The translations under genes were made by a program, and so were the position numbers. Positions 2,842 through 43,440 of a DNA stretch of 64,000 nucleotides are shown here, in pieces. The notes under the pieces are model-generated. The model was not told the DNA's origin. It did no database searches and saw only the letters and a list, made by a program, of their open reading frames with translations. The stretch's first letter is position 1. Each line of letters starts with the position of its first letter. This stretch comes from Candidatus Bathyarchaeota archaeon (GTDB lineage: Archaea; Thermoproteota; Bathyarchaeia; 40CM-2-53-6; RBG-13-38-9): contig CAWECG010000003.1 in assembly GCA_963807605.1 (NCBI GenBank), positions 416,001 through 480,000 of the forward strand, given 5' to 3'.

Positions 2842-2859
2842 TTCTGAGGCGAAGTATGT

Positions 2860-5409: not shown

Positions 5410-5529
5410 TGGCGGGCCCGCCGGGAATTGAACCCGGGACCCCGACCCAGGACACACTTTGTGTCTCCTTCCGGGTGGCCTCCAAAGTCGTTAAAAGCCC
5501 GGTACTCTACCTGACTAAGCTACGGGCCC
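5410..5529 (-). tRNA. tRNA-Lys(UUU) with two introns (37/38, 15 nt; 43/44, 28 nt), CCA encoded
   Basis: Spliced product GGGCCCGTAGCTTAGTCAGGTAGAGTACCGGGCTTTTAACCCGGGGGTCCCGGGTTCAATTCCCGGCGGGCCCGCCA folds as a cloverleaf; both introns fit BHB geometry. Confidence 0.92.
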
Positions 5530-5530
5530 G
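5508..5530. repeat. att site (left) overlapping the tRNA-Lys 5' end
   Basis: ACTAAGCTACGGGCCCG at 5514-5530 is identical to 41704-41720; 22/23 match over the extended 23 bp. Confidence 0.9.
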
Positions 5531-5549
5531 TCCTTATTGTCCCTAACTA

Positions 5550-5568
5550 ATCCTTATATCTTTGTCTC
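5550..5568 (-). promoter_or_regulatory. Island-supplied BRE/TATA promoter for tRNA-Lys
   Basis: Minus strand AAAGATATAAGG ~25-35 nt upstream of tRNA G1. Confidence 0.5.
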
Positions 5569-5593
5569 TTCCATGTGTTTCTTTGGGTCAGGG

Positions 5594-6937
5594 ATGGTAA
5601 GGACAAGCTATAACCATGCTTTGGTTAAAAAAGCTTCACAACTTGTTGGTAGTAGTGAGGCGGTTAGGAAGTGGTATGATGAGATTTCATTCACAAAACA
5701 GCCTCGTACAAGCTGCGATTATGTCAATGAACTTGCATGTTTTTGTGAGGATGTTAAGAAGACGCCTGAACAGCTTCTCGAGTTAAATGCCAAACACGCT
5801 TATGAACTCATGAAAGGGTGGGCGGGTCAGAAGATTAGGTTAAAGGTATATTCTCTTAAGACTGTCCATGCTCGATGGTATGCTATTCGGAGTTTCTTCA
5901 AATTTCATGAGATCGAGATCAAAGACGATTTTCCAATCCCGCATATCCGAACTAAGTTTTCTGATAAGATACCTACACGAGAGGATCTTCGTCAGATTCT
6001 TAATGCTGCCTCCTTTTTTAACACAAAGATTGGTATCCAGCTTCTCGCTTATTCTGGAATTCGACCTGAAGACATTTGTGATTTGACCTATGCTTCAATA
6101 AAACATGATTTCGAGAAAGAGATCTATCCTTGCTCTGTGTACGTGGCGCAGGGCAAAACGGGTGATGTTTATGTTACCTTCATGCCTCGTCAGACTGTAG
6201 AGACAATCAAGCAATATTTTAAGTTGAGAACTAAAAAGGGTGAGAAGATCGAGGATAACACCCCACTTTTGCGATGCCAAAGAGGAAAAGAGGTTAGAGG
6301 CATTAGGCGGAGAACCTTAAGCCACAAGATTAGGGAGGTTCTATTAAAGAGTGGAGTGGAAATAAAGGTAGAAATCGGTGATAGAATCAGGCGGATGCGT
6401 CCTTATAGTCTCAGGAAGTACTTCAGAAGCAACCTCTCAAGTGAAATGCAGACCGAGTTCAGTGAAGCTCTGGTTGGACACATAACGGGTTTGGCTCAAA
6501 TTTACAATGGGATTAGAGACTTGGATCCTGCTGCAATTGAGAGAATGAGAACAGCCTACTCTAAAGCGGAGTCCTTCCTTCTCGCTGATGGTGTAAATAT
6601 AGAGGGTCTACAAGAGATGTCTAAGAAGCTCAAGAATAATGAGGAGGAGTTGGCGTCTATTCGTTCTGAACTAATAGAATATAAGAAAGAAGAACTACAA
6701 CGGACAAAGAGACACATGATTCAAGAACTTCAAAGATTTAAACAGATTTCCAAGACCGAGGAAGAATTCCTGTCCAACTTTGATGGTTACATAGAAGGTT
6801 ATATCGAGGGTATCAGAAATTTGGCTGCGCAGGAAAAACGACCGCTGAGCGAAAGGGAAATGGCGGAAATCGCGCTAATTCAGACTATCACTACAGAAAC
6901 AAAAAGGGCTGTGTTCCGTGCTACTCCCATGGTTTAA
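5594..6937 (+). CDS. Tyrosine recombinase/integrase of the island
   Basis: SGIRPED (R), GKTG (K), YSLRKYF, LVGH, QIYNG (Y); C-terminal coiled coil; ATG at 5594 preferred over TTG 5537. Confidence 0.9.
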   Translation: MVRTSYNHALVKKASQLVGSSEAVRKWYDEISFTKQPRTSCDYVNELACFCEDVKKTPEQLLELNAKHAYELMKGWAGQKIRLKVYSLKTVHARWYAIRSFFKFHEIEIKDDFPIPHIRTKFSDKIPTREDLRQILNAASFFNTKIGIQLLAYSGIRPEDICDLTYASIKHDFEKEIYPCSVYVAQGKTGDVYVTFMPRQTVETIKQYFKLRTKKGEKIEDNTPLLRCQRGKEVRGIRRRTLSHKIREVLLKSGVEIKVEIGDRIRRMRPYSLRKYFRSNLSSEMQTEFSEALVGHITGLAQIYNGIRDLDPAAIERMRTAYSKAESFLLADGVNIEGLQEMSKKLKNNEEELASIRSELIEYKKEELQRTKRHMIQELQRFKQISKTEEEFLSNFDGYIEGYIEGIRNLAAQEKRPLSEREMAEIALIQTITTETKRAVFRATPMV

Positions 6938-7041
6938 GCCTGTGAGGTGGGCTTTCTTACTAACACTTGGTAACTCAGCAGGAAATGAAAGAAGAATCAA
7001 CGGGGAAAAAAGTAAGGACTAAAAAAGCTTCCGTTCCGCGA

Positions 7042-7296
7042 TTAGGCTTGTGGCGGCGCCTCTACTGCTTTTACCCTCTTCTTTCTTGCAGGAGGTCTGC
7101 CCCTTTTCTTTCTCGGTCTGCCCCTTCGTTTTCCTAGTGGGCGACCCTGTCTCTTTACAGGTTTGTTGACTATTGACAGGACGATATCTCTAATAGTTCC
7201 CTTAATCTCAGCTGGGACAGCGTTTATACTGTTCCTTAAGCTTTCAGCGGAGGTTAGCACTTCAGATATTATGCTTGAACTCTTCCTTCTCGGCAT
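7042..7296 (-). CDS. Small basic protein with tandem GRP (AT-hook-like) motifs
   Basis: KRQGRPLGKRRGRPRKKRGRPPARKK. Confidence 0.6.
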   Translation of the reverse strand: MPRRKSSSIISEVLTSAESLRNSINAVPAEIKGTIRDIVLSIVNKPVKRQGRPLGKRRGRPRKKRGRPPARKKRVKAVEAPPQA

Positions 7297-7591
7297 AAAG
7301 ACACGTCACTACTATGTCTCACCCAACGTTAATTTAGCGTTATGCCTTTCTCCCTCTGTTTCCTCTTTATGGATAGCAGTAGAATCGTATGTTAGAGAAA
7401 TGACGATTAAAGAGCAGGCTAGACAAGCAATTCTTTGAGAGCCTGAAGGGCTGGATAAATTCAAAAGATACTAATGCGAGTAATATGAATCAAAATCTAA
7501 AACCGATGGTTAGTGGGGAACCTGAAGTAGTTGTCCCCGCCTTGTTGGATCGCACTCTGAGCTACAGAAACAATCAGTAAGTCCAGAAATG

Positions 7592-7723
7592 TCATGGTTA
7601 CTACTAGCCTGGCACTTACGGAACCATGCGGCACATGACTTGACCCCACAAAAGGTACTTGTTCAGCGATTCGGTGAAATTGTCCAGAGTCTAATGAACA
7701 CACTGTTTCTTTCTGTTCAATAG
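7592..7723 (+). pseudogene. C-terminal fragment of a HEPN-like protein
   Basis: Manual translation LAWHLRNHAAHDL (RxxxxH); no intact start. Confidence 0.45.
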
Positions 7724-7789
7724 GTTGCTACGCGAATATGAAATGTAAATCAAGATTTTCTAAGCATATGCAAAGGACATTAGACTAGC

Positions 7790-8113
7790 ATGTGTTCGAG
7801 AGGAACTAAAGTATTAACATTCGAAGAGTGCCTTCAACAAATAGTCGAGAGCGCTCTCTCAAAACGTTTGGCTCTCTGGCTTGGTGCAGGAATATCATGC
7901 AAGCCACCTGCAAACTTACCATTAAGCAGAGAATTGAAGTTCCACATTCTCGAGAGGATTTGTCAATCAGACATGTTATGCCATATGTACGAGGAACGTC
8001 TACGCGGCCACACGCACACTGATTTTGTTTTGGGAAAACTAGAGGAAATCATAAGAGCGAGACGCGCCTTACTTACCCAAGAAGGAAAGAAAGTTGAAAG
8101 GATTAACGAGTAA
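7790..8113 (+). pseudogene. Truncated SIR2-family N-terminus
   Basis: LALWLGAGISCKPPANLP = sirtuin GAGIS..P motif; only 107 aa. Confidence 0.6.
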
Positions 8114-8369
8114 AGAATACCTGTTCTTGAGGGTATTGGCTACTGTTATTTTCATTAATACCGTTGTTTTCTACGTTGCCTCACTCCACATGGAAACTTT
8201 CGTCGCTAATTTCTTTGAGGTTGTAGCGTTGACTACTGGCCTTACGGTCTTCGTTCTTACAATACAACTGCTGTTCTGGTGGAAATACCTACGAAGAACG
8301 GACAATCAGCGATTTTGGAGATGGGATGCAAGTACCCTCTTTTCTCGGAAACTAGAGAACTCGAACTAG
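8094..8369 (+). CDS. Small two-TM membrane protein
   Basis: Two hydrophobic segments. Confidence 0.45.
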   Translation: MKGLTSKEYLFLRVLATVIFINTVVFYVASLHMETFVANFFEVVALTTGLTVFVLTIQLLFWWKYLRRTDNQRFWRWDASTLFSRKLENSN

Positions 8370-8415
8370 ACTGAGTTACTTTTTGCGTTCTGACCTCCCA
8401 CAGAACGCTAGAACA

Positions 8416-8985
8416 CTACCACCCGATAATGCAACAGAGCACCTTTCCTGGGGGGCGTCCTCGCCGCTTTGCAGGTTTGCTGACTATCGCCTTAGCCATG
8501 TCTCTAATCCTATCTTTAATCTCAACTGGTACGTATCTTTCGAAAGACTCTTGTAAGACGATTCGCTCAGGCTCTGATAAGTCGGAGTTACTTGAGAATT
8601 GGGCGATTTCATACCATAGAAGAGTTGTGTTGACGCGTCCAGATTCGACTGCCTCCCTGATTGTTTTCCTGCCCTCCTCTACTCCAAAGTTCAGTGCTAT
8701 GGAAATAGCGAGCCAGACGTTCAAACCAGCATCATTGGGACAAAACCTCACACCTGCCCGAGCAGCCTCTAGCGCCTGTGGCTTCTGATTCGCAGATCTC
8801 AGAGTAAGGATCTTGTCGTTGTGATAGATGGGATTGTTTGGATTCAGTGTGATCGCAATGTCGTACTCCTTGGCAGCTTCATCAAATCTCTTCAGACCAT
8901 ACAGAGCGACGCCTTTGTTGTTGTGATAGATGGGATCGTCTGGATTTAGTCTGATTGCGATGTCGTACTCCTCAACCGCTCCTCA
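8416..8985 (-). pseudogene. TPR-protein fragment fused to a partial copy of the AT-hook protein
   Basis: Frame upstream of 8751 reads EYDIAIRLNPDDPIYHNNKGVAL..EYDIAITLNPNNPIYHN; C-terminus EIKDRIRDM..KPAKRRGRP resembles 7042-7296. Confidence 0.6.
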
Positions 8986-9596
8986 AATCTCTGCTAACAC
9001 AATTTAATTCTGTCTTGATCTTATCGTAGATTGGAAGGGGAATCACGACGTCACTTGACCCAGGCATAAATCTATTCTTCCATGTCTACTCTTAGCAAAT
9101 AGGTTCTTATTTTGTTATCTACAGGGTAACGTCAAGTTCTCGGTTTCACTTGGTTCGTCGTAGCATCCTGGAGTCCATACTTCTTCCTGGTTATCCCGAA
9201 GCTTTTCTCGAAATCTTGGCGTTTGATCTTCTCGCTGGGAGGACTTGTGAGTTCATACTTGACTTTGAAAAGTTCAGCGAGTGTGAAGAAGAAGCCCAAG
9301 TGAAAAATGTCCTGTTGCTCTTCCGCTTGTAGTCCCAATCGGTCGAAGAGCCGGACTAGGCTCGGCGTCGTTTCCTTAGTTGCGTTCAGAGTGAAGTACA
9401 GGTAGCAGTCACGAAAATCAGCGACGTGCGTTTGAAGTCTTTAGGCTTCTGGTGAGAGGGTGTTGAAGACTGACGTGTAATTCGACCTTTCGACGAAGCT
9501 CCATGATCAGATTCACGGCTTTGCTATGCCAATTCATAGCCGTTTTTTCACGGTCATCAAAATAGCGCATGATGCTGTACGCTCACTCGCAAGTCG

Positions 9597-9652
9597 GTGG
9601 TGGTGCTCACAAAGGGAGTGGGTGGTGGTGTCTTAGCTGGTGATTTTGAACC
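9597..9652. repeat. Pair of CTC-ACCAGCTA family sites (variant forward CTCACAAAGGG 9606-9616; reverse TAGCTGGTGA 9634-9643)
   Basis: GTGGTGGTGCTC arm identical to the one at 14835. Confidence 0.7.
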
Positions 9653-10411
9653 TTCTCTGAAATGTTACTACGGAAAGACCACATCGACCATACAAAAACG
9701 ATTAAGAAAACGCGACTTCAAAATCTATAGACAAGGAAAACAATGCCACGTAGTTGGAAAGCCATCCTCAAAGTGGACATTCATACACTCTATACTAGGA
9801 GCTGCCCTTTTTCTGAATCAAATTAAGTTCTCGTGATGCCAATAATTGTGCCAGTCGTTACAACATAGCAGAAGCAACACACTGTAGTGGTTGTAGGTTG
9901 TAACATAAGAGTCAGCAGAAAACCCACGCTGGTTAAACTTGACCCAATAGTTCGGCCATTTCGGCACTATTTATCTATTGAGTGACTTTGAAGATTAAAA
10001 AAGAATTACAGGCCCCAATTCGTTGGTATTTGTCGGTAGTTTACTTTCAGCGACCCATTTCTTTCCTCCAGTCTCAGAGATTTTCGGTGTCCTATTCCTC
10101 ATCCTTGCGATTCGTTTATTATTACTTTCTCAAGCTTCTTGAGTAGAGATCCTTGAAGCTCTTCGGGCGCATTGGGTTATGCTACCTTGAAAATGTCGAG
10201 GTCTTCAGTAATTTTCCTATACCGTAGGATCATTCATATTTAGCACTTCTTGTACAATGAAGGGGGATCGTCGGTTCATATCTTAGAGACATTTGCAAGG
10301 GATGATATACTCAATTGTCTGCGCGCTTGCTAAAAAAGGATAGATTCGGGCTATTTCTCAGAAGGGTGAACCAACATTGCTAGCGCCATTCACCATGGGT
10401 GATGTCAAAGC

Positions 10412-12337
10412 ATGGGTGGACGAAAGAAAGCCCTGCTAGCATTCCTTATTTGCTTCCTTCTTGCTGCGCTACTTTTTCTAATGCGAGGAAATCCGACGGT
10501 TGGTGCAATCGTTGGTATAATAACACTGGCACCTACGATAGCATGGCTTTTAGGATTCGATCCTAGAGACTTATTCAAGAAACAAACTGGTCGATCAGAC
10601 GCCGAGATCATTGTGAAAGCACAGTTTAGAATGGGGCCATTAAAAGAGCTAACAGAGTCATACCGAGGGGCTGAGGCTATCAAATCTTATGAAGACGGGC
10701 ATTCAATTATTCTTCTCAATCGTTTATCCATCAAAAATGCGGCAATAATGTCTGCATTTCAGCTCATTCAAGAGGGGAGGTATGAGGAGGCCGACGCCAA
10801 AGTCACAACGGAACTCCTAAAGACTCAGGAGATCCTATCCAGCTCACTTCTACTTAGTCAAACGTATCTGATCAGAGCAGACACACTGTTACACAAGAAT
10901 TCCTACTTAGAGGCGGAGAGATACTACGGGTTATCTCACGAACTAGCTACTTCAATCGATAATGTTCCGTTGATGATTGCGTCGGATGATGGCTTGGCAG
11001 TTGCCAAAGGGAGACAAGGCAGAAATTCTGAAGCTCTAGAGATTGTTGAACGGATCCTGCAAGGCTATCCAGACCGCGCTAAAGCATGGTACAATAAAGG
11101 AGTAGCCCTCAGCATGCTAAATAGGAATGATGAAGCACTAGTTGCCTTCGATAAAGCGATTGAATTAGAACCAGACTATGTTGTTGCTTGGAGCAATAAA
11201 GGTACTATGCTCAGCTTACTCGGCAGAAATGACGAAGCCCTTGTTGCCTTCGAGGAGGCAATAAGACTGAAGCCTGATTTTTCCCGCGCGCTGTACAACA
11301 AAGCAGCCTCTCTTCGCAAGCTGGGAAAAGTCGATCAAGCCTTAACTGCGCTGAAAGAGGCTTCTAAAAGAAGCACAAGGGATAGTGATTCATTAAATCA
11401 TGAAGGTGCCATCCTCGGCGAATTCGGCAAACATAAGAAGGCCCTAGCTGTTTTGGAAGAAGCACTAAGGCTGAACCCTAAAAATTACGAGGCGTGGTAC
11501 AACAAGGGAGTTAGTCTGTATCGACTTGGCAAACATGAGCAGGCACTGGACGCATTCAATAAGGCAATAGGGCTAGACCCGAACCACAGGGATGCATGGT
11601 TTGACAAAGGGATAATTCTCAAGAATTCTGGAAAGTATGAACCCGCCATAGCGGCATTCGATGAGGTCACAAAAATTGATCCTAGATTTGGTGCGGCATG
11701 GTACAACAAAGGCTTAGTCCTCGGCATGCTTGATAGGGTGGGTCAAGCACTGGTTGCCTTTGAAGAATCCATAAAACTAGATCCAAGCAATGCTTTTGCA
11801 TGGTATAACAGGGCAATAGCTTTGCGTAAGCTCGGCAGATTAGAGCAAGCTCTAGATGCCCATGAACAAGCACTTAGGATCGAGCCTAAGCTTGCAGCGG
11901 CGTGGGATGACAAAGGAGTCATACTTTCCTCGCTCGGCAAGTACAAACAAGCCGTTTCTGCCTTTGAAGAAGCCCTGAAAATTGACCACAATAACGCGCA
12001 GCCATGGTATAATAAAGGACTTGCTGAATTGAGGCTCGGAAAGTTTCAAGACGCTGTGAATTCCCTTGGAGAGTCCCTTAGACTCAACCCTCGAATCATT
12101 CCTGCATGGAATGACAAAGGAGTCGCTCTGATTGAACTTGGTGACTTCGAGGAAGCTCTATCAGCTTTTGAGGAAGTTCTGAAACTCGATCCAAATCTCG
12201 TTGCAGCGTGGGTTAACAAGGCAAACGTTCTCCGCAAGCTCGGGAGATTAGAAGAAGCTGATAGGGCAGCTGATCGAGCACTGGCGATAGCGCGAGCTAC
12301 TAATGATAGAACCAACAACAAAAGAAGTTTCAGATAG
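10412..12337 (+). CDS. Membrane-anchored tetratricopeptide-repeat protein
   Basis: Two N-terminal TM helices; about 12 or more AWYNKG-type TPR repeats. Confidence 0.92.
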   Translation: MGGRKKALLAFLICFLLAALLFLMRGNPTVGAIVGIITLAPTIAWLLGFDPRDLFKKQTGRSDAEIIVKAQFRMGPLKELTESYRGAEAIKSYEDGHSIILLNRLSIKNAAIMSAFQLIQEGRYEEADAKVTTELLKTQEILSSSLLLSQTYLIRADTLLHKNSYLEAERYYGLSHELATSIDNVPLMIASDDGLAVAKGRQGRNSEALEIVERILQGYPDRAKAWYNKGVALSMLNRNDEALVAFDKAIELEPDYVVAWSNKGTMLSLLGRNDEALVAFEEAIRLKPDFSRALYNKAASLRKLGKVDQALTALKEASKRSTRDSDSLNHEGAILGEFGKHKKALAVLEEALRLNPKNYEAWYNKGVSLYRLGKHEQALDAFNKAIGLDPNHRDAWFDKGIILKNSGKYEPAIAAFDEVTKIDPRFGAAWYNKGLVLGMLDRVGQALVAFEESIKLDPSNAFAWYNRAIALRKLGRLEQALDAHEQALRIEPKLAAAWDDKGVILSSLGKYKQAVSAFEEALKIDHNNAQPWYNKGLAELRLGKFQDAVNSLGESLRLNPRIIPAWNDKGVALIELGDFEEALSAFEEVLKLDPNLVAAWVNKANVLRKLGRLEEADRAADRALAIARATNDRTNNKRSFR

Positions 12338-14064: not shown

Positions 14065-14799
14065 ATGATGAAGAGATATCCCCTCGCTGTTTCTGTCAAA
14101 CAGGTGATAGCGCGTATACAGATGCTTTTGGAACAATTTGAATCACCATTCAAGGCATCAGATCTTTATAAAATCAGAAGAGGAGTTATCACAACGAATA
14201 AGGACGAATCCATAGACTATGAAGCTGCTATCACATACCTAGATAAAACAAATCAGGTAAGAATACTCGAGAAGAAGGAACCCTTTGACGAGACCGTATT
14301 CGAACCTACAATAGACTTTGGTGTTTCAAGACCTACACTTCCGGTCGCATTGCCGACGGCTGCCAAAGGAAAAATAGCGTCTGATGCTGGGATGATGCTA
14401 GAAGCATACGCGGCTCTTTATGTTCTTGAGAACACACTCCGAGATTTTATTGAAGAAAGATTAAAGCAATCGTTTCAATCAGATTGGTGGCAAAAGGGGA
14501 TACCTGCAGCCGTCAACAAAAAAGTGGTTCAAAGAAAAGCAGACATACGGACAAGATGGCACCACATTGCAGTAGGTTCGCCTCTTATGATGACTGATTT
14601 TAATGATCTCGCCGGCATAATTAGTGTCAACTGGGTTGCCTTCAAGGAAACTATGGGTGATTTGGAACGGGTTAAGTCTGTTTTGGCTGAACTTGAAGTC
14701 CCCAGAAACATAGTTGCACACTGCAATCCGCTTGCTCCAGATGAGAAGACAAGACTCCTGCAAAACGTTCGGATTGTCATGAAATTGAGCGGTAGATAA
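14065..14799 (+). CDS. Swt1-like HEPN domain protein
   Basis: LENTLRDFI..DWW..DFNDL..RNIVAHCN. Confidence 0.8.
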   Translation: MMKRYPLAVSVKQVIARIQMLLEQFESPFKASDLYKIRRGVITTNKDESIDYEAAITYLDKTNQVRILEKKEPFDETVFEPTIDFGVSRPTLPVALPTAAKGKIASDAGMMLEAYAALYVLENTLRDFIEERLKQSFQSDWWQKGIPAAVNKKVVQRKADIRTRWHHIAVGSPLMMTDFNDLAGIISVNWVAFKETMGDLERVKSVLAELEVPRNIVAHCNPLAPDEKTRLLQNVRIVMKLSGR

Positions 14800-15674: not shown

Positions 15675-15962
15675 ATGGCCTTAAACATTAGGGAAAAGGG
15701 TAGAGAGGCCTTGAATGAGCTTCTTGAGTTCGGTCTTTTTGTTCTCGTAGATACAGGGGCGTTGCTTATGATAGTCATGGCCCTTTGGATAGGCGAAGTG
15801 GCGGTGAGTTATCGCTATACTGAGACGTATCTAGTCTTTGAAGTGCTTCACCAAGCTTCATACGTGGGGCTCTTTCTCCCTTATTGTGCTTTGCTAGTAT
15901 TCGATGCCTACAAGTTTCTAATCCTCAGGAAGAGGAGATTGGCCCGTGAAGTTTGGACTTAG
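15675..15962 (+). CDS. Small two-TM membrane protein
   Basis: Hydrophobic ORF overlapping the start of the TyrRS paralog. Confidence 0.6.
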   Translation: MALNIREKGREALNELLEFGLFVLVDTGALLMIVMALWIGEVAVSYRYTETYLVFEVLHQASYVGLFLPYCALLVFDAYKFLILRKRRLAREVWT

Positions 15963-17280
15963 GTCTTGGTCGACAATAGGAAAACTATTCAGCCGCAGGC
16001 AGTTAGCGTTCGTAGTCGTAGTCATAGGTCTGTATTTTCTCAGTGTTTCCATACTTTCCGTGCTAAAAGGAATAGTGTCGTTGACAGAATTTCTGTTGTT
16101 TCTTTCAGCATCAACTATCCTGATTCTGCTTGGAATACATGTCGGAAGGCATGAGAAATACAAATCTGCAATACGCGTTCCAGAATCGGATGTTAGGAAT
16201 AGGTTAGATCTCGTAACCAGAAATACTGAAGAGATCATAACTCAAGATGAACTAAGGAGTCTACTTGCTGTCAAGAAATGCCCTAAAGCATACTGGGGTT
16301 TTGAAGGTAAGAGCTTGATGCATCTAGGAATGGGACTCGTATGTGGAGGAAAGATCAAGGACTTGATAAGAGCTGGATTTGAGGTTACAATTTTTCTTGC
16401 CGATGTTCATTCTTGGATTAGCAATAAGTACCAAGGAGATATGAAAAAAATAAGAGCCTGCATCGAATACTTTGAGCATTGCTTCACCAGCCTTGGAATT
16501 TCGCCTCATGAAGTCAAGTATTTATGGACATCTGATTTAGCCAAAGACCCAAGTTACTGGAAGAGAGTCATAGAGGTAGGGAAAAACGCCTCTATTCGCA
16601 GAATACTGAGAGCGTTGCCAATAATGGATAGACAACTGGGGCAAGAAGACGTTGATGCAGCGGACGTATCGTATGTTTGCATGCAGGTAGCAGATGTATT
16701 CGAGGTGGGCGCGGATGTTGCATGTGGCGGATTGGATCAGAGAAAGGCTCACATGTTAGCCAGAGACATCGCTGATAAACTGAATTGGAGAAAACCAATC
16801 GCTCTACACGTACCTCTACTATTATCCTTAGATGAACCCAGACAATTCGGTGAAGTTTATGATGAAGACGAAAAAATAAGCAGACGTATAATGAACAAAA
16901 TGTCAAAAGAATCTCATGGAGGCATAATCTACATACATGATTCTCCTGAAGAAATAAGGAACAAGGTCCTTAACGCATACTGTCCGCCCAAGAAACTTGA
17001 GGACAATCCAGTAGTAGAAATAGTCAGACTTATCATATTCCCTGAAAGATCTACGTTTGAAGTAAAAAGACTGGACAAATATGGCGGAAACGTGATCTTG
17101 ACCAGCTTCGAGGAATTTGCAGAACTCTATCGTAACGGAAAAATTCATCCAATGGACCTCAAGAACAGTGTGGCAGAAAGTCTCACAGCAATGCTAAAGG
17201 GAGTCCGGGAATATTTTGAAAGAAACCCAGAGCCTCTGCTGACTATGCGAGAAGTTGAGGGACAACAGCAGGCGTCGTAA
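15946..17280 (+). CDS. Tyrosyl-tRNA synthetase paralog with N-terminal transmembrane helices
   Basis: AYWGFE..HLGM, FLADVH, YVCMQVAD, GGLDQRKAH, KMSKE, AYCPP, IHPMDLK; extra ~80-aa N-terminus with two TM segments. Confidence 0.88.
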   Translation: MKFGLRSWSTIGKLFSRRQLAFVVVVIGLYFLSVSILSVLKGIVSLTEFLLFLSASTILILLGIHVGRHEKYKSAIRVPESDVRNRLDLVTRNTEEIITQDELRSLLAVKKCPKAYWGFEGKSLMHLGMGLVCGGKIKDLIRAGFEVTIFLADVHSWISNKYQGDMKKIRACIEYFEHCFTSLGISPHEVKYLWTSDLAKDPSYWKRVIEVGKNASIRRILRALPIMDRQLGQEDVDAADVSYVCMQVADVFEVGADVACGGLDQRKAHMLARDIADKLNWRKPIALHVPLLLSLDEPRQFGEVYDEDEKISRRIMNKMSKESHGGIIYIHDSPEEIRNKVLNAYCPPKKLEDNPVVEIVRLIIFPERSTFEVKRLDKYGGNVILTSFEEFAELYRNGKIHPMDLKNSVAESLTAMLKGVREYFERNPEPLLTMREVEGQQQAS

Positions 17281-23252: not shown

Positions 23253-23783
23253 ATGTACTCATGGTCTGAAAGAGGACAAAGTTGGCAACCATACCAGCAA
23301 CCTTTCCGTCAGCCGAGAAGTGGACCAATTTACACACCCTCAGGAATTATTCCCGATTCTAGTTACGCATCAAATTGGCCGGAACTTCGACAATGGGTTC
23401 TTCAGCGAGACGGACACCAGTGTACCAATCAGTGGCAGGATGCTTATGGCAACTGGCAACGATGCCCTGCTACAACAAGCCTTCAGGTGGATCATATAAC
23501 TCCCAAGTCCAAGGGTGGAAGCGATTATGTAGAGAACCTGCGAACCCTATGCGAGCGATGCCACTCTCAACGCCACCCACACATGTGGGCTCAATACCAT
23601 ACAGAACACCCAGAAGAATTCGGCTATCCACAACAAGGATCCTATACACAGCAGCCAGGATACTATCCTCAACATGGTTATCCACAGTCCGGCTACCCAT
23701 ATCAGCCTCAATACTTCAGCCACCCACAAACATATCCATTCTTTGCCCAACAAATCCATCAGCCCTACTTTAGATACTACTGA
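23253..23783 (+). CDS. HNH endonuclease with Q/P/Y-rich low-complexity tails
   Basis: VLQRDGHQC, VDHITPKSKGGSD..NLRTLCERCH. Confidence 0.85.
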   Translation: MYSWSERGQSWQPYQQPFRQPRSGPIYTPSGIIPDSSYASNWPELRQWVLQRDGHQCTNQWQDAYGNWQRCPATTSLQVDHITPKSKGGSDYVENLRTLCERCHSQRHPHMWAQYHTEHPEEFGYPQQGSYTQQPGYYPQHGYPQSGYPYQPQYFSHPQTYPFFAQQIHQPYFRYY

Positions 23784-25628: not shown

Positions 25629-26297
25629 TTGGCAACATTGGCGAACATATTCATTAGTCACAGTCGAAAGGACGATTCGCTAATTGCAAGTGTCCATCAA
25701 CTCCTAGTAAACGTAGGTCATACTCCAATTATTGAGGAATTCATTCCAGAGTCAGAAAAACTGCCTATCCCCCATGATGAGATTCAGAGAAATGTGTCCG
25801 TCAGCGACGCCATCTTTTTGTTCCTCACTGATAATGTTCTCGCAACAGACTATACTAGAAATTGGGTGGTCTTCGAAGTCGGTTTAGCGAAGCAAGCTTC
25901 GAAACGAGTATTTGTGTTCGAAAGATACGGTGTTCCAATTCCGTATCCAATACCGTACGTCACAGATTACACGATTTTCGACCCACAGAGCATCAGTGAT
26001 CTCCTGACCATCCAAACGATAGCAAAAGAACTGGTTGGAAAGATTCCTGCAGCCTTGATTGGAGCAGGGGCAGGTGCGTTGCTTGGCGCTGCCTTTGGAC
26101 CATTAGGATTTGCGATAGGTGCTATTACACTTGGTCTCGCAGGTCACAATTGGGATGTTCAAGCTGAAGCGAAAATTCCGGTTGTCGAATGCCCGTATCC
26201 CAACTGCCATGTTCGTTTCAGGTATTACTCTCCAAACGTCACCTCCTTCAATTGCCCGACATGCCGCCAACAAATTGACCCTCCGAGGTGGGTTTAA
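25629..26297 (+). CDS. TIR-domain protein with glycine zipper and Zn ribbon
   Basis: IFISHSRKD, WVVFEVGLA (catalytic Glu), GAGAGALLGAAFGPLG, CPYPNC..CPTC. Confidence 0.85.
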   Translation: MATLANIFISHSRKDDSLIASVHQLLVNVGHTPIIEEFIPESEKLPIPHDEIQRNVSVSDAIFLFLTDNVLATDYTRNWVVFEVGLAKQASKRVFVFERYGVPIPYPIPYVTDYTIFDPQSISDLLTIQTIAKELVGKIPAALIGAGAGALLGAAFGPLGFAIGAITLGLAGHNWDVQAEAKIPVVECPYPNCHVRFRYYSPNVTSFNCPTCRQQIDPPRWV

Positions 26298-26602
26298 TGA
26301 CAGAGATCAGTCGAAAATACAGTACGGATGCAGACAAGACTCTGGAAAAGATCAAGGAAACTTGCAACCGTTTGGGATTTCCCATAGTCAATGAGGACGC
26401 AACGACTCGGCGTATACAAGTATCAACCGGATGCACCGCTTTTTCCTGGGGGGAGACTATGGATATCATAGTAAGTCAGCAGAAAGATGGAGCAACGGTA
26501 ACAGTCGATTCAAAGCCCAAAGTCTGGTACAATCTTCCTGGATCGGAACGGGCTAAAAGAAACGCAGAGGCTCTACTTGACGAATTAGATAAACAAGTAT
26601 GA
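26288..26602 (+). CDS. Hypothetical protein coupled to the TIR gene
   Basis: TAATG stop/start overlap at 26295-26299 (likely real start 26297). Confidence 0.7.
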   Translation: MGLMTEISRKYSTDADKTLEKIKETCNRLGFPIVNEDATTRRIQVSTGCTAFSWGETMDIIVSQQKDGATVTVDSKPKVWYNLPGSERAKRNAEALLDELDKQV

Positions 26603-26661
26603 TGAAGACCCATCCCACAATCCCCCCTCTGCAGAAGGCTATCTTCGGTTCTGTCAAGTCT
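26455..26661 (+). repeat. ~207-bp direct duplication, copy 1
   Basis: Near-identical to 36888-37093. Confidence 0.95.
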
Positions 26662-26747
26662 TCGGGCGATTTTTCTCCCTGTCAAGTTCGAGAGATTACT
26701 TGATGGGGAATATGGTAACTTGATCGGGAGTTTTAATAGTTCAATTC

Positions 26748-28614: not shown

Positions 28615-28740
28615 ATGAGTAAGACAACCTTCCGATTGCCGAAAAGTTTACTGAGAGAAACGCACACTATGCCATAGAGCATGACAAAACGGACACCGAG
28701 ATTTTCAATGAAGCACTTCCGAATATCTCAGCAAGAGGTC
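28615..28740 (+). pseudogene. Frameshifted ribbon-helix-helix (CopG-like) regulator
   Basis: MSKTTFRLPKSLLRE/fs/YAIEHDKTDTEIFNEAL. Confidence 0.45.
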
Positions 28741-28749
28741 TGGAAAGAA

Positions 28750-29633
28750 ATGAGTAGTGACCAACAATTAACTGAAGCAGAAAAAAGCCGTATTGGGAGT
28801 CCCGCGGAGACATACTGTATCTACGCGTGTCCCACATGCAAGCGAGAGTTGGAGCTGAGGGACGGCGGACTCCGGTGCCATGTCTGCGCGGTGACCTATC
28901 CTATCTTGGACGGCATTCCCGATTTCGTGCTCGAAGACCTCGCGGAGAACAGTAACCAAAGCTTGCGCATTATCGGGAAATGGACTCCTCCGTCCCGTTC
29001 GACTTCATGGCGCGCATTTACGAGACATGTGTGTATCCGCTGGTGTGTAACCTGCTTGGGGGGTGGCGCAGCATGTCCTTGAAAGAGCTGGCACTCGACA
29101 TCTCGGACATTGTGGGATCAGTCGATGGCTTAGTTCTGGATGTGGCATGCGGCCCGGGAACCTACGGTCGTCGCATCGCTTCCGAGTCAAGGACCATTTA
29201 TGGCATTGATGCCTCCATGAGCATGCTGCGCCGGGGTGTTCGCTACGTCGAGCGAGACTGTGTTCCCAACGTTCACTTCGCCGGGGCCAAGGTCGAGGCG
29301 CTGCCGTTCTCAGCCGGTCTGTTCGACGCTGCCATCTGCGCAGGGTCGTTGAACCACTTCTCCGACACAGTCTTTGCATTGCGTGAGATCGGCCGTACAA
29401 TGAAGGCGGGAGCGCCATTGGCGGTGATGTGCTTTGCCGTGAGCACTAGGGGCGAAGTGAAGCAAGGTCTCTTCAAATACCGACGCATTCGTGACCAATT
29501 GCCTAACGAAGGTGCTGGTCATATCTTCGAGTTCCCCGAACTCGACCGGTGCCTAGCCGAGGCTGGCTTTGAGGACTTCCGACCCCATCAGTACGGATGC
29601 CTCCTAGTGTCGTCCAGCACTCGAAAGAAATGA
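28750..29633 (+). pseudogene. Trm112-like Zn motif + class I SAM methyltransferase, frameshifted near 28980
   Basis: CPTC..CHVC..YPILDGIPDF; VLDVACGPG, FDAAIC. Confidence 0.75.
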
Positions 29634-29923: not shown

Positions 29924-31309
29924 TTAGTTTTTCTTGGCCCTAATGACGAGAAATGTAGGCATAACTCTTCTAGCTCGAGCAATTCTTGGCGGAATAGACT
30001 TATCCAACGGCTCTGGTTCATCAAATCCCTCCATGGTAAATCCAAATTTCAACAAGGTGTTTACATATGATTTTAGAGGCCTATGGTAGACCGAAACTCT
30101 GACATGTTTTCCATTTAGTTTCCAACTCTCCACGTATTTTCTCTCCAAAAAATAGTCCTTCCAGATGCTTGGTAACTCGGCCTTGCTCTTGCTAGGAAAC
30201 AACATATCTTCGAAATTTGTCTTCAGAGGATGTGGCAGGGACATTACTAAGATTCCCCCATGTTTAAGAACTCTGAAGAATTCTCTAATCGTTGATTTGT
30301 AATCTCCAACATTGTCAAGTAGAAATCCGGCCGTTATCATATCGAACGACTCATCCTTGAAACCTAGTGAACTGCTATCAAGACGAAGAAGGTTTCCGCT
30401 TCGTTTACCGATAACTTTCTTGGCATAGGCCAACATATTTGAGGATATGTCAAAGCCGGTGACTTCAAAGCCCATATGAAGTAGTCTGTCGGCATAAAAC
30501 CCTCCACCGCATCCCGCGTCGAGTGCTCTGACGCCCCTATAAGAATCTATAAGATTAATTACAGCTGGCAATTCCATTAGTCGACTAAGAGAGTTCTCTG
30601 ATCTATATGCACAGTACTGGTTAGCTACTTCATCCCATGTATCAGATTCGAGGTCGCTTAGTAAAGAGACGAACCATGTGGGCGGATTTTTGATGTGATC
30701 AAGTATGTAGCTTCTTCTTCTGAGGATCCTTTTATGCACCTTGGGCATTGATCTAATTAGTCTTTCAAGCCTATCTACGGACGGGATATTCGAAGTCAAT
30801 AGTTTTGAGAGGTCGGAAAGATGTTTCTTGTTTTCGGCTCTTGTAGCTCCGCGGGCAAATATCATTTTCATTACAACTAGATGCTCAATAGGAGGAATGT
30901 GTAATTGCATAGATCCGAGGTTACAAATGAACGGCTCTTTTATCAGATGTCTAAGGGGATACCGAATTTCGATTCGCTTATAGGAGTCGTCAAGTATTTT
31001 TAATTCATCAATCACCAAATGCAGTTTCTGAATATCGGAGTCAATATATCTCACAAAAGCAAAGTGCGTATTCCTCGGTTCACCACGGAGATGTCCCTCC
31101 TTGAAACCTATTTCCTTTAAAAGGAATCTGACAGAATCTATATCTTGAAGTCTGCACACCAAGTCCAAATCAGCGATGCTTCGCCTTTTGACGAAACAGC
31201 TGGCTGCTAATCCGCCTATCCATAGATGCTCTATACCACTGTTTCCTATGTGCATAACGACCTCTTGAACAGCGCGTGTGCGTGTAGTTGAGCGCAATTT
31301 TGCGCTCAC
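29924..31309 (-). CDS. Nucleotidyltransferase (AbiEii/DUF1814-like) + class I SAM methyltransferase fusion
   Basis: IGGLAA...RSIADLDL; ALDAGCGGG, GFDIS, FDMI, RVLKHGG..HP. Confidence 0.8.
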   Translation of the reverse strand: MSAKLRSTTRTRAVQEVVMHIGNSGIEHLWIGGLAASCFVKRRSIADLDLVCRLQDIDSVRFLLKEIGFKEGHLRGEPRNTHFAFVRYIDSDIQKLHLVIDELKILDDSYKRIEIRYPLRHLIKEPFICNLGSMQLHIPPIEHLVVMKMIFARGATRAENKKHLSDLSKLLTSNIPSVDRLERLIRSMPKVHKRILRRRSYILDHIKNPPTWFVSLLSDLESDTWDEVANQYCAYRSENSLSRLMELPAVINLIDSYRGVRALDAGCGGGFYADRLLHMGFEVTGFDISSNMLAYAKKVIGKRSGNLLRLDSSSLGFKDESFDMITAGFLLDNVGDYKSTIREFFRVLKHGGILVMSLPHPLKTNFEDMLFPSKSKAELPSIWKDYFLERKYVESWKLNGKHVRVSVYHRPLKSYVNTLLKFGFTMEGFDEPEPLDKSIPPRIARARRVMPTFLVIRAKKN

Positions 31310-32586
31310 GCGGCCCCAAATTTGAGCTTTTTCAGATTGATCTCAGGGATTTTGTCAAAGAGTCTTATAGGTTTCTGGCCATGCAAGTCGATTAGTTTCA
31401 GATTTTCCAATTCTTTCAAGGCCTCAGAGAGAGCACTCTCTTTGAGCCCACAAAGAGGCATAAGATCCTTACGAACTCGTTTCCCGTCACAATTTAGAAA
31501 TAGAGATAACTTCTTGGGATTAGCCAGAACCTTGAATACCTGCGAAAGCTCCTTAGTTGACTTGATATCCAACCTCACGCTAGTCCTAGATTGGATGTCG
31601 ATCTTCTCTAGTTTCTTTTTAGCGGACTCAAAGATCTCGTGCAGGTTATAAGTTATTGCCTCCTGTAGTTTAACTGTAGAAGCAGGAGAAGTAAGTGCTT
31701 TCTTGATATGTTGCGTCTCTGATTGTTTCTCTAACTTCTTCACTGTTTTTAATTCACCATTTCTTACGACATACCATCTGTCTAGAAAAAGTGGGAGAAA
31801 GAAATCGTGCAAGTTGTTAATCCTATTTATTGAGTCTTCACTTGTGCTCTTTAGGAACTTGAGAACGTATTTGGCAATGTCATCTTGTCGATTATCAATA
31901 TCACTATATTTATAGTCATTTCCCTCTTCAAGGCGAAAATTCGGAAGTGCCGGCATTGACACAACAACTGGATCAACTCCTTTTGTGATATCCATATAGG
32001 ATTGGCATTTACTCTCTCCACATAGAATGAGTTTTGCTGGGCAAGATGCTAATCGTAGATCATTTAGCTTCCTCGCAAAAGCAATGTCCAGAGTATCTGA
32101 TATCAGATGGTCCACTCGTTCCCTCCTTTCAGCATACGTTTCAGGGATCTTTATTGATGTGATTGAGAACCAATGACTAAGATTGCCCTCTTCCCTCCTA
32201 AATCTCTCTATTAGCTCTGAGAACCTACAAAGTTCAACTTTGTGAAGATCAGCATCTAGGGCTTGAAGCAAGTTTCTAAATTTCCCTTCGCAGGCCTCGA
32301 CCGTCTCTTCATGTGAGCGTGTTATCTTGTCCTGAAATACAACGTGATGGTACATTGTAGCGTCTTGTATGTTGATTACAACAGAGATCCCTAGGCGCGA
32401 CATATTGGAGAGTATCTTAGCCACCGTCAGATGATGGTAAGTCAAAGTAATTGGCATCAAAGAGCAATAGGTTACTATGTCCTCGCCTGAACGTATTGTG
32501 TTGGATATTTGCTCTGAAAGATCCTTTTTATTGACGTTCAGGGAAAGATTATCGAATAGCTTCTCTATTTCACTAGCGCTGGTCAT
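31306..32586 (-). CDS. Degenerate TyrRS/TrpRS-like Rossmann domain + C-terminal ArsR-type wHTH
   Basis: TYCSLMP..LTYHH, VVINIQD, LILCGES, VVVSMPALP follow class Ic motif order; FKVLANPKK..ALSEALKEL HTH. Confidence 0.55.
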   Translation of the reverse strand: MTSASEIEKLFDNLSLNVNKKDLSEQISNTIRSGEDIVTYCSLMPITLTYHHLTVAKILSNMSRLGISVVINIQDATMYHHVVFQDKITRSHEETVEACEGKFRNLLQALDADLHKVELCRFSELIERFRREEGNLSHWFSITSIKIPETYAERRERVDHLISDTLDIAFARKLNDLRLASCPAKLILCGESKCQSYMDITKGVDPVVVSMPALPNFRLEEGNDYKYSDIDNRQDDIAKYVLKFLKSTSEDSINRINNLHDFFLPLFLDRWYVVRNGELKTVKKLEKQSETQHIKKALTSPASTVKLQEAITYNLHEIFESAKKKLEKIDIQSRTSVRLDIKSTKELSQVFKVLANPKKLSLFLNCDGKRVRKDLMPLCGLKESALSEALKELENLKLIDLHGQKPIRLFDKIPEINLKKLKFGAA

Positions 32587-32820
32587 ATTGTCTTTCCACT
32601 CTTACTATTGACGATAAGCTGGGAGTTATTGAAGTTCTCGCCTGGAATACCAAATCTGTGGAATCGAGATTCGCGATTTCGCGAAGTCAGTTTTTGACAT
32701 GTATCTTGGGGCCATTATATAGCTGGACACCATCCTGCGTCCAAGGAGTAAGACACTAAGGAGGGCGTGATGAAAAACCGCTCCTGTGTGTCTTCATAAT
32801 AAACCTAGGCTGGGACGCAA

Positions 32821-34559: not shown

Positions 34560-35072
34560 GTGTCGTCACTTCGTGTTATGATATTCATAGACGGTTCAAA
34601 TCTATTCAAAGCATCAGAACGATATAGAACGGGGTATCGCCCTGACCTGGCGAAACTCCAAGATAAGTTGGTCAAGGGTCGAACGTTGATGAGAACCTAT
34701 TACTACTGCTCAATAGCTAATCCACCAAGAATTGAGCAGATCAAGTTTCAAGATAAATTGAAAAATCTACACATCCAAGTGGTTTCTAAGTCTCTCAAAA
34801 ATCGTCCTACTGGTGAAAAGGTTGAAAAGGGGGTCGATGTTGCACTTGTGACTGACATGCTTAGCCTTGCGTTTCGTAATGCGTATGATGTAGCCATTTT
34901 GGTCAGCGGCGATAGCGACTTCCTTCAAACGGTGAATGAAGTCAAACGAGCTGGCAAAAGAGTTGAAATAGCTTCATTCAGGTTCACTATAGGCAAGGAG
35001 TTACAAACGGAAGCTGACGATTTCATTCCAATTGAACCAATAGCCGATGAGATAGCACTTGAGCGAGGCTAA
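34560..35072 (+). CDS. NYN-domain (LabA/DUF88) RNase
   Basis: IFIDGSN, EKGVDVAL, LVSGDSDF, GKRVE. Confidence 0.92.
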   Translation: MSSLRVMIFIDGSNLFKASERYRTGYRPDLAKLQDKLVKGRTLMRTYYYCSIANPPRIEQIKFQDKLKNLHIQVVSKSLKNRPTGEKVEKGVDVALVTDMLSLAFRNAYDVAILVSGDSDFLQTVNEVKRAGKRVEIASFRFTIGKELQTEADDFIPIEPIADEIALERG

Positions 35073-36887: not shown

Positions 36888-37093
36888 GACTATGGATATC
36901 ATAGTAAGTCAGCAGAAAGATGGAGCAACGGTAACAGTCGATTCAAAGCCCAAAGTCTGGTATAATCTTTCTGGATCGGAACGGGCTAAAAGAAACGCAG
37001 AGGCTCTACTTGACGAATTAGATAAACAAGTATGATGAAGGCCCATCCCACAATCCCCCTCTACAGAATGCTATCGTCGGTTCTGTCAAGTCT
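36888..37093 (+). repeat. ~206-bp direct duplication, copy 2
   Basis: Near-identical to 26455-26661. Confidence 0.95.
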
Positions 37094-37188
37094 ACGTCGG
37101 TTGACAGATGCTGTAAAAATACGTCGGGTGGCGATGGGTGTTGCACCCGAAAGGGCTCTGTTAAGTTGGCGGTTGCCTGTTCAGGCTG

Positions 37189-41697: not shown

Positions 41698-41720
41698 TAC
41701 CTTACTAAGCTACGGGCCCG
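41698..41720. repeat. att site (right): orphaned 5' end of tRNA-Lys
   Basis: Minus strand GGGCCCGTAGCTTAGT, preceded by a TTTTTTAAT box at ~41746-41755. Confidence 0.9.
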
Positions 41721-42335: not shown

Positions 42336-43440
42336 GGGGTTGTCCCGTTATTAGCGTTTTCATGTTAGGTTTGTCCAGTAGGTTATGCTTCTGGTTTTGG
42401 TGGGTTGTTTGGTGTTGTGTGAGGCTTCTATGGTGTAGAGGAGGCATAGTATGCAGTAGCTGATGTGGATGGTGATGTTTTCTAGTCCTCGTGTCTTGTG
42501 GTTGTTGAGGTTGAGGTGTTCTTTGAGTGATGCGAAGACCAACTCGATGATGGAGCGTTTATTGTAGATGTGTTTGAGGTTTTCTGGGCCGTGTGTTTTG
42601 AAGTCGCTGGTTACTCTGAGGATGTTTTGTCTTTCAGGTTTCTGGTTGGCTGGGTAGGGTATCGCGGTCTTGATTCTGTGTTTTTTAGCGGTCTCTCTGA
42701 GTCTGTTGCTGGAGTATTGACTGTCAGCGGTTAGCTGTCGGATTCTGGTTGCTGTGGTTTTAACTGTCATTTTGAGGAGTGGTATGCTCGGTTTCTTCTC
42801 GTTAGTGTTTGCTGGTGTCACTAGGAATGTTAGGGGTGTGGCTGTGTCTGTATCGACTGTTAGGTGTAGTTTGTAGCCTAACCCGTATGTGCGGTAGGCT
42901 CTTCCTACACGTGCTTGAGGGTCACTGAAGCCTGTTCTATTGTTTATGTTTCGTCTGCTGTAGGCTTTGATGAAGGTGGCGTCCATAGCAACTATTCTTG
43001 GTGTTACATAGCGCTTCTTCAGTAATTTCTTGACCTGTTTGTTTACTATGCGTCTTAGTCTTCTTGTTCCTAGTCGCTGGTTGAATCTTGAGAGTACCGT
43101 CCTACCGTAGGCTGGCTCCTCATATCTTATGTCGCATATGTCACGTAGCCGCTCATCGATCCATAAGCGACGTTCAAGCTCACGCAGACTGTTTATTCTG
43201 AGGTAGCGTCTGGCAAGGTGTGCCTTGAAGAGTCCTAGAGGGTTACGTGGAGGTTTACCTGGACCTTCTTGATGATAGCAACTAACAACTAGACGTTCAA
43301 CAAATGATAAATCCAGATTACTCAGCAGTGACTCCAGAGTCTCGTACCCTTCTATCTGGAATCTCCTCCAAGTAGAAGGGTGCGGGGCTCAACCCTTATG
43401 GATCTTTCCGTGTCAACTCAAAGAATATCGGGACAACCCT
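42336..43440 (-). mobile_element. Insertion sequence (IS5/IS1182-like), 1105 bp
   Basis: IRs GGGGTTGTCCCGTTATT / AATATCGGGACAACCCT; flanking GCGCGC duplication. Confidence 0.88.
42360..43392 (-). CDS. DDE transposase (frame open upstream of ATG 42986 to ~43385; start unclear or frameshifted)
   Basis: MDATFIKAYS, GYKLH, ADSQY, YNKRSIIELVF; upstream GPGKPP..SLRELERRL. Confidence 0.85.

Follow-up and report, generated by a model that had tools for sequence, protein, structure and literature searches.

A putative one-component regulator with a tyrosyl-tRNA synthetase fold and its nucleotidyltransferase-methyltransferase neighbour in a Bathyarchaeota genome

Introduction

BirA, NadR and Csa3 are one-component regulators in which a ligand- or nucleotide-binding fold of catalytic type is joined to a helix-turn-helix (HTH) or winged HTH (wHTH) domain. 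BirA, which has remained an enzyme, carries its HTH at the N-terminus, joined to a class II aminoacyl-tRNA synthetase (aaRS)-like fold. Paralogues of aaRS that have lost catalysis and fulfil regulatory roles are known as well. In the AbiE and MenAT systems the gene of a wHTH protein precedes an overlapping gene that codes for a nucleotidyltransferase (NTase); AbiEi features an N-terminal wHTH followed by a C-terminal domain of its own. The present work deals with two adjacent genes, named here A and B, found in a stretch of 64,000 nucleotides (the window) from Candidatus Bathyarchaeota archaeon (GenBank assembly GCA_963807605.1, contig CAWECG010000003.1, positions 416,001 to 480,000). Gene A codes for a protein with the fold of an archaeal-type tyrosyl-tRNA synthetase (TyrRS) that lacks the HIGH and KMSKS signatures and ends in a wHTH. 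Gene B codes for an NTase fused to an S-adenosylmethionine (SAM)-dependent methyltransferase.

Gene A differs from BirA in having a class I TyrRS fold, in the C-terminal position of its HTH and in the loss of the catalytic motifs. The locus is reminiscent of AbiE and MenAT because a wHTH protein is encoded upstream of an overlapping NTase gene, because the closest homologue of gene B (P0003) passes the cut-off of the AbiEii family PF08843, and because the genes lie in a mobile island with defence genes. It departs from them in that the wHTH of gene A is C-terminal and preceded by a TyrRS-fold domain, in that gene B adds a methyltransferase, and in that the NTase domain of the window protein itself stays below cut-off. 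A full-text literature search, judged from its search results alone, brought up no earlier account of an HTH or other DNA-binding domain joined to a class I TyrRS scaffold. Gene A is best interpreted as a one-component regulator whose sensor stems from an enzyme, on the same logic as BirA, NadR and Csa3. It is moderately probable that gene A is such a ligand-sensing regulator, derived from TyrRS and coupled with gene B as its effector in an AbiE-like conflict role.

The TyrRS scaffold and winged helix of gene A

The AlphaFold2 model of the gene A product built from a 9-row alignment has a predicted local distance difference test (pLDDT) score of 86.5 and a predicted template modelling (pTM) score of 0.76, while the single-sequence prediction (pLDDT 32.6) was unusable. 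When the model was compared to the PDB with Foldseek all 49 matches listed were TyrRS structures, the best being 2cyb_A (E 9.7e-11), and template modelling scores normalised to the target reached 0.70. Comparison with VIA-align to 48,161 representative chains gave a full-length match to the A. pernix TyrRS (2cya_A; Z 21.7, 296/328 residues aligned). The TyrRS of Mimivirus, Leishmania and human matched the model with Z 19-22, tryptophanyl-tRNA synthetases (TrpRS) with Z 12-18. Cyclodipeptide synthases resemble gene A in the fold of the catalytic domain and are likewise devoid of HIGH and KMSKS, but they lack the TyrRS C-terminal domain and the wHTH, and their match is much weaker (Z 9.8-11.1) and confined to approximately residues 9-215.

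The likeness of gene A to the archaeal/eukaryotic-type TyrRS (class Ic, PF00579) thus extends to both the Rossmann core and the C-terminal helical domain. The sequences have nevertheless diverged to 12-16% identity, and gene A has no PF00579 match at E <= 1. No Pfam family was matched by the N-terminal 335 residues, nothing in Pfam was significant for the complete protein and no AbiEi match was found at E <= 1. Sequence and profile searches of the PDB retrieved only wHTH proteins and no aaRS.

The wHTH of gene A is found at the carboxyl terminus of the protein. In the model residues 342-420 resemble ArsR, CzrA and CadC (Z 8.4-9.0; 6j05_B 9.0, CzrA 8.6), the gene A profile finds SmtB in the PDB (E 2.7e-5), and residues 348-400 match the NCBIfam ArsR/SmtB model NF033788 (E 1.4e-4, 21.5 bits for a cut-off of 55). 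The same stretch gives a weak match to Csa3 of PADLOC, whose Csa3/CasR models also match the wHTH part of family members. Pfam wHTH domains are present at the C-terminus of 8 of the 9 aligned family members; HTH_5 matches 8 of the 9, with a best E value of 5.7e-7. The C-terminal domain of gene A belongs to the wHTH superfamily, without reaching the cut-off of the curated ArsR family.

Residue conservation was followed across the window protein, 7 proteins from databases and 23 genomic loci, which makes 31 family members in all. A copy cut by a contig end (L028) and a fragment of 153 amino acids reduced to the wHTH (in L075) are outside this count and the tree described below, and P0020, a protein of 3708 amino acids with 14 short local matches, was excluded from all alignments. 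A HIGH-like motif (H-x-G-[HNM]) is absent from the expected N-terminal site of all 31 members, one of which has an unrelated match at residue 246. The KMSKS-like motif (K-x-S-x-[ST]) is equally absent from its expected site in the whole set, a KFSTT sequence being found once off site. The original prediction, which had recognised by eye an aaRS fold with TyrRS/TrpRS-like motif spacing, no intact HIGH or KMSKS and an ArsR-like C-terminal HTH in gene A, is therefore upheld for the fold, the missing motifs and the HTH, the class I aaRS fold having emerged from the AlphaFold-Foldseek comparison that it had proposed.

Other positions of the scaffold have been kept. D75 is found in 31/31 members, Y50 and S123 in 30/31 and D167 in 29/31; G368 of the wHTH is invariant. 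A global hhalign alignment of the family to the TyrRS of related genomes (28 sequences; E 8.5e-6, probability 64%, 296 columns) leaves a gap of 4 residues opposite the MHLG sequence of the host TyrRS and another of approximately 19 residues opposite the KMSKS loop; with a TyrRS profile of only 2 sequences the match was local (E 4e-4). In the global alignment D75 faces the aspartate of the TyrRS 'FLAD' strand and S123 the serine of 'ASEL', while D167, located in the segment 'QVAD...LDVA', pairs with one or the other of two TyrRS aspartates according to the register. The segments to which D75, S123 and D167 are aligned line the tyrosine pocket in the M. jannaschii TyrRS.

The gene B fusion and its overlap with gene A

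The methyltransferase moiety of gene B is readily identified. Residues 263-356 match PF08241 with E 4.5e-21 (75.7 bits for a cut-off of 21.2), residues 236-459 match the methyltransferase of PDB entry 3bkw (E 2.3e-14), and the sequence contains the SAM motif LDAGCGGG. The N-terminal domain gives a fainter signal with PF14907 (E 0.054, 13.5-15.7 bits for a cut-off of 31.2). Its reading as an NTase relies on the Pfam matches of P0003, a conserved motif and matches of language-model features. P0003, the sole full-length homologue of gene B found in a word search of 5.8 billion clustered proteins (42% identity, 98% coverage), scores 27.8 bits to AbiEii (PF08843, cut-off 22.5) and 28.6 bits to PF14907 (cut-off 31.2). 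G32, D47, D49 and D101, together with the GG...DLD motif, are invariant in the alignment of the two proteins. By its Atlas language-model features, taken as a lead only, the domain falls in the neighbourhood of AbiEii, DUF6036 and aminoglycoside-NTase clusters, with scores of 0.91-0.92.

The fusion is rare. Besides the one homologue from the word search, a survey of 400 further genomes of the phylum yielded none; 12 of these genomes have short stand-alone NTase frames of 60-242 amino acids. Gene B may carry out a modification in two steps for which known AbiEii/MenT systems offer no precedent.

The stop codon of gene A (TGA) and the GTG start codon of gene B share the sequence GTGA at positions 31306-31309. 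This 4-bp overlap holds only if gene B begins at the GTG. An alternative ATG is found at position 31255, 18 codons downstream and with a GAGG 5 nucleotides upstream of it; it is the start used in the database gene call, which leads to a gene B product of 443 amino acids and a 51-bp gap to gene A. The GTG is favoured because P0003 aligns to the long form from residue 1 (MS... in both proteins), their N-termini coinciding, and because the short form would lose the helix ahead of the GG strand. Whichever start is used, both genes are read in the same direction with no more than 51 bp between them. The overlap reported in the original prediction is thus confirmed, given the GTG start. The two domains it had assigned to gene B are supported as well, the SAM methyltransferase directly and the N-terminal GG..R..DLD NTase chiefly through P0003 and the shared motif.

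Upstream of gene A a divergent intergenic region may hold the promoter of the operon. It features a TATA-like element, TATATAAT, and a candidate operator, TTCGCGAAATCGCGAA, approximately 25-40 nucleotides further downstream.

Distribution of the gene A family

Relatives of gene A are scarce in protein collections, where they are labelled 'hypothetical protein' or 'MarR family regulator'. The word-index search of the 5.8 billion clustered proteins retrieved gene A itself only, and the same search with a profile three proteins. An exhaustive phmmer search of 1.84 billion representatives found 9 proteins at E <= 1e-3, self included, and a profile search one more. No match was obtained in searches of metagenome and viral contigs, nor in one of genome contigs. 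A full-length relative is missing from the 400 other sampled genomes of the phylum, in which the wHTH part alone was matched, and the 40 genomes of nearest relatives searched contain no match to gene A or to the NTase part of gene B.

The family is found instead in other archaea. A genome scan identified three loci in Micrarchaeota and a fourth in Woesearchaeota. When complete genomes were searched with the family profile, 8 of 401 in the first phylum and 16 of 401 in the second proved to have members. In the maximum-likelihood tree the window protein groups with P0016 (support 100/99) inside a clade with P0017-P0021. A member represented by P0024/P0025/P0026 (contigs of 4.7-9.7 kb) is assigned by NCBI to the bacterium Caldisericum sp. 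and branches inside the Micrarchaeota clade; its label could reflect gene transfer or a binning error.

P0016 is also the closest homologue of gene A (37% identity). P0016 and P0003 are each recorded on a single ENA contig, of 5871 bp in both cases. The identical size indicates that the two are probably on the same contig, and therefore that genes A and B have probably been co-inherited over considerable divergence.

Genomic neighbourhoods of the relatives in DPANN archaea

The 24 other family loci, L028 included, are all from DPANN archaea and are related to each other rather than independent samples. Their 129 neighbours within 3 open reading frames (ORFs), called by a crude longest-ORF script, were scanned against Pfam at E <= 1e-5; the neighbour lists are incomplete for L027, L028, L060, L062, L072, L076 and L077, which are at contig ends. 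A radical SAM gene is found in 14/24 loci and a gene of the thymidylate- or uridine-kinase family in 8/24. NUDIX proteins are encoded in 5/24, CYTH proteins in 4/24 (plus one more recognised by NCBIfam), HAD and DHH proteins in 2/24 each and Ham1 in 1/24. At least one of these families is present in 18 of the loci and none in the other 6.

The arrangement of these genes varies. In Micrarchaeota a radical SAM gene coding for 335-343 amino acids divergently adjoins the family gene. In L063 and L068 a gene for a B12-binding radical SAM protein overlaps the family gene by 4 bp, in the downstream slot that the NTase-methyltransferase occupies in the window, and in L067 a B12-radical SAM gene starts 2 bp after the family gene. 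The radical SAM and nucleotide-gene associations are spread over the other well-supported clades of the tree. That several distinct arrangements exist speaks for a recurring association of the family with radical SAM and nucleotide-enzyme genes.

The radical SAM proteins of the Micrarchaeota loci score best with MoaA models, at 95-103 bits and far below the cut-offs (231-325). In PADLOC the neighbours match pVip (E 1e-7 to 1e-9) and VakA (E 2e-14). The radical SAM and nucleotide kinase gene pairs of these relatives are thus similar to prokaryotic viperin-kinase loci, from which they differ by the higher scores of their radical SAM proteins with MoaA and by the B12-binding enzymes that some loci encode instead. 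Clusters of radical SAM (MoaA/viperin-like or B12-binding), CYTH, kinase and NUDIX/HAD/DHH genes, such as those at L063:6644-9119, L068:3219-5974, L026:5745-7961 and other DPANN loci, may be nucleotide-analogue pathways.

It had been asked of the locus whether the pair is conserved elsewhere. The answer is split: the pair probably recurs once, in P0016 and P0003, while the partner is another one at the remaining loci or is missing. Since the family adjoins radical SAM and nucleotide-metabolism genes in other genomes, gene A looks like a modular regulator with swappable effectors and not like one half of a fixed two-gene system. The family has at least 31 members. In DPANN and other poorly understood archaea it connects a recognisable fold for ligand or tRNA binding with the genes of nucleotide-modifying enzymes, and it provides a handle on what the radical SAM/kinase/CYTH/NUDIX clusters respond to.

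Proposed function and alternative explanations

Gene A would sense through a full-length TyrRS scaffold of archaeal type, catalytically dead now that the ATP-activation motifs HIGH and KMSKS are gone, and respond through its C-terminal ArsR-type wHTH. The TyrRS-like domain may bind a small ligand, perhaps tyrosine-like or nucleotide-like, because Y50, D75, S123 and D167 are kept and align to segments of the TyrRS amino-acid pocket. TyrRS and ArsR proteins both act as dimers; gene A would act as a dimer carrying two wHTH domains and control its own operon from the intergenic region upstream. Gene B, translationally coupled downstream, would be the effector that nucleotidylates and methylates an RNA, nucleotide or small-molecule substrate. 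The effector in the slot adjoining gene A would vary by lineage and would usually be a nucleotide-directed enzyme. A conflict function similar to that of AbiE, with its wHTH regulator and NTase toxin, is likely by analogy because the mobile island that carries the operon has many genes of defence type.

Several points weigh against this proposal. The analysis shows the folds, the loss of motifs, the operon arrangement, the island and the genomic associations of the family, while DNA binding, ligand sensing, regulation of gene B and any toxicity are inferred. The functional link of A to B in turn is deduced from the overlap and one probable recurrence. The mapping of conserved residues onto the tyrosine pocket is uncertain, given the hhalign probability and the dependence of D167 on the register, and the retained TyrRS C-terminal domain could serve in tRNA binding rather than accompany a small-ligand site. 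Palindromes in the putative promoter region, including I5, the candidate operator, are short and not above chance. The gene B product itself has no PF08843 match and its NTase domain is under every Pfam cut-off. No NTase-methyltransferase fusion is found beside the relatives of gene A at any of the 24 loci, and an antiviral role of the DPANN radical SAM proteins finds little echo in the viperin model NF038283, with which they score 24-29 bits, far below the cut-off of 180.

Part of this evidence fits other explanations. Gene B might be a toxin of the MenT/AbiEii type, with tRNA 3' ends as the target first of nucleotidylation and then of methylation. Gene A would then bind tRNA(Tyr) or the toxin through its TyrRS scaffold, anticodon-binding domain included, and act as antitoxin and autorepressor. 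The alignment of the gene A model to the whole of TyrRS, C-terminal domain included, would suit a protein that binds tRNA; the AbiEii score of P0003, the presence of an extra TyrRS paralogue in the same island and the 4-bp overlap, which matches the abiEi/abiEii arrangement, point in the same direction. A toxin-antitoxin pair of this kind is nevertheless rather unlikely, since the architecture of gene A is unlike that of AbiEi and the family does without the fusion at the 24 other loci, where the nearest approach is an unrelated DUF6036 NTase three genes away in 1/24. The same absence of the fusion, and that of both genes from the genomes of the nearest relatives searched, would be expected if A and B were adjacent cargo without functional coupling, gene A regulating something else or only itself. 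The overlap of stop and start codons, the record of both closest homologues (37-42% identity) on ENA contigs of equal size and the use of the same overlapping downstream slot for another enzyme by other family members make mere adjacency quite unlikely.

An enzymatic role for gene A, as a cyclodipeptide synthase-like or other aminoacyl-tRNA-using protein of the class Ic aaRS fold with gene B as tailoring enzyme, would account for the loss of HIGH and KMSKS, which cyclodipeptide synthases share along with their fold, and a methyltransferase could serve in tailoring. It is very improbable: the match to these synthases covers only part of the protein with half the Z score of TyrRS, the family retains a wHTH as well as the C-terminal domain of TyrRS, and the genes around it code for nucleotide enzymes and not for peptide-tailoring oxidases. 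The reading of gene A as a TyrRS-derived regulator of an adjoining effector can also be taken further. The pseudo-TyrRS-wHTH proteins might be widespread archaeal immune or stress sensors. Their repurposed pocket would detect tyrosine, tRNA(Tyr), the state of aminoacylation or a nucleotide signal, and the proteins would then switch on interchangeable effectors, the putatively membrane-anchored TyrRS paralogue of the island taking part in the same tRNA(Tyr)-centred conflict. Such a sensor class, a doubtful generalisation at this stage, would act in the window through the NTase-methyltransferase and in DPANN archaea through radical SAM enzymes, either viperin/MoaA-like or of the B12 kind, together with kinases, CYTH and NUDIX proteins.

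The mobile island

The operon is located in an island of approximately 36.2 kb whose predicted limits are two att-like repeats, one at a tRNA gene that abuts an integrase gene (Table 1). In addition to the genes for putative defence proteins listed in the table the island holds a type II DNA methyltransferase and a Panacea/DarG-like protein. The conflict context put forward in the original prediction is in this way borne out for what concerns the setting; the role in tRNA/RNA modification or repair that it had suggested keeps the standing of a hypothesis.

Table 1. Positions in the window of the A-B operon, its encoded domains and the main features of the island
Feature	Positions	Strand	Evidence and remarks
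Gene A, pseudo-TyrRS domain and wHTH, putative regulator	31306..32586	-	426 aa, ATG start; ORF read
Gene A residues 1-335, archaeal-type TyrRS fold without HIGH/KMSKS (Rossmann core and C-terminal helical domain)	31582..32586	-	VIA-align, hhalign
Gene A residues 342-420, ArsR/SmtB-type wHTH	31327..31563	-	VIA-align, NCBIfam, profile to PDB, Pfam
Gene B, NTase-methyltransferase fusion	29924..31309	-	461 aa from GTG; ORF read
Gene B residues 1-225, AbiEii/DUF6036-like Pol-beta-type NTase (GG ... DLD ... D)	30635..31309	-	PF14907, P0003, motif, Atlas features
Gene B residues 236-461, class I SAM methyltransferase, Methyltransf_11 type	29927..30604	-	PF08241, PDB 3bkw, motif LDAGCGGG
Divergent intergenic region upstream of gene A	32587..32820	.	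Sequence read; promoter role putative
tRNA gene with intron	5413..5529	-	Rfam RF00005, 51.4 bits; none by ARAGORN; left att-like repeat at 5' end
Left att-like repeat, 23 bp	5508-5530		Repeat D13; overlaps tRNA 5' end
Integrase of tyrosine-recombinase type, at island edge, abutting tRNA	5537..6937	+	PF00589, E 8.9e-9
Swt1-like HEPN protein	14065-14799	+	PDC-M34B, E 4e-32
Extra TyrRS paralogue inside island	15946-17280	+	PF00579, E 1.4e-37; 54% identical to housekeeping TyrRS
HNH nuclease	23253-23783	+	Island gene
TIR protein, ThsB-like	25629-26297	+	CAP12/Pycsar TIR E 3e-6, ThsB E 1e-6; C-terminal hydrophobic stretch and zinc ribbon
Left copy of ~210-bp direct repeat	26455..26664	+	Families D1, D8; overlaps 3' end of 104-aa ORF 26288-26602
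NYN nuclease	34560-35072	+	E 1e-30
Right copy of ~210-bp direct repeat	36888..37096	+	Only last 47 codons of 104-aa ORF
Right att-like repeat	41698..41720	+	Repeat D13, 22/23 identical to 5508-5530

Within the island a segment of 10.4 kb that holds genes A and B is bracketed by the two copies, 98% identical, of the ~210-bp direct repeat. This bracketing and the truncation of the 104-aa ORF in the right copy suggest that the segment is a nested insertion, which has no integrase of its own. Shorter repeats (25504-25553/34107-34153 and 28436-28489/37152-37205) hint at more duplication in this region.

The genome encodes its own TyrRS and TrpRS, to which the island adds the TyrRS paralogue. A second intact TyrRS copy is found only in G000 among 41 related genomes, two others having split matches. 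The KMSKS motif of the island paralogue reads KMSKE and, when translated from its GTG start, the protein has an N-terminal extension of approximately 85 residues in which two hydrophobic stretches resembling transmembrane segments were noted by eye.

At 28681-29633 (+), an ORF with a Trm112-like zinc ribbon (PF03966, E 4e-4) overlaps a Methyltransf_25 ORF in a different frame. The two look like a single frameshifted Trm112-methyltransferase gene. Their segment has a GC content of 54%, compared to ~42-46% nearby. At the left end of the island the 3.5 kb that follow the integrase gene (6937-10412) have no ORF of at least 120 amino acids and carry a tandem-like repeat of 71 nucleotides at 8800-8972. 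Just outside the island, a DDE transposase gene is found at 42360-42986 and, at 2260-3396 (+), a wHTH-MNT nucleotidyltransferase (TrmB and Polbeta) and a HEPN protein make up a typical MNT/HEPN pair.

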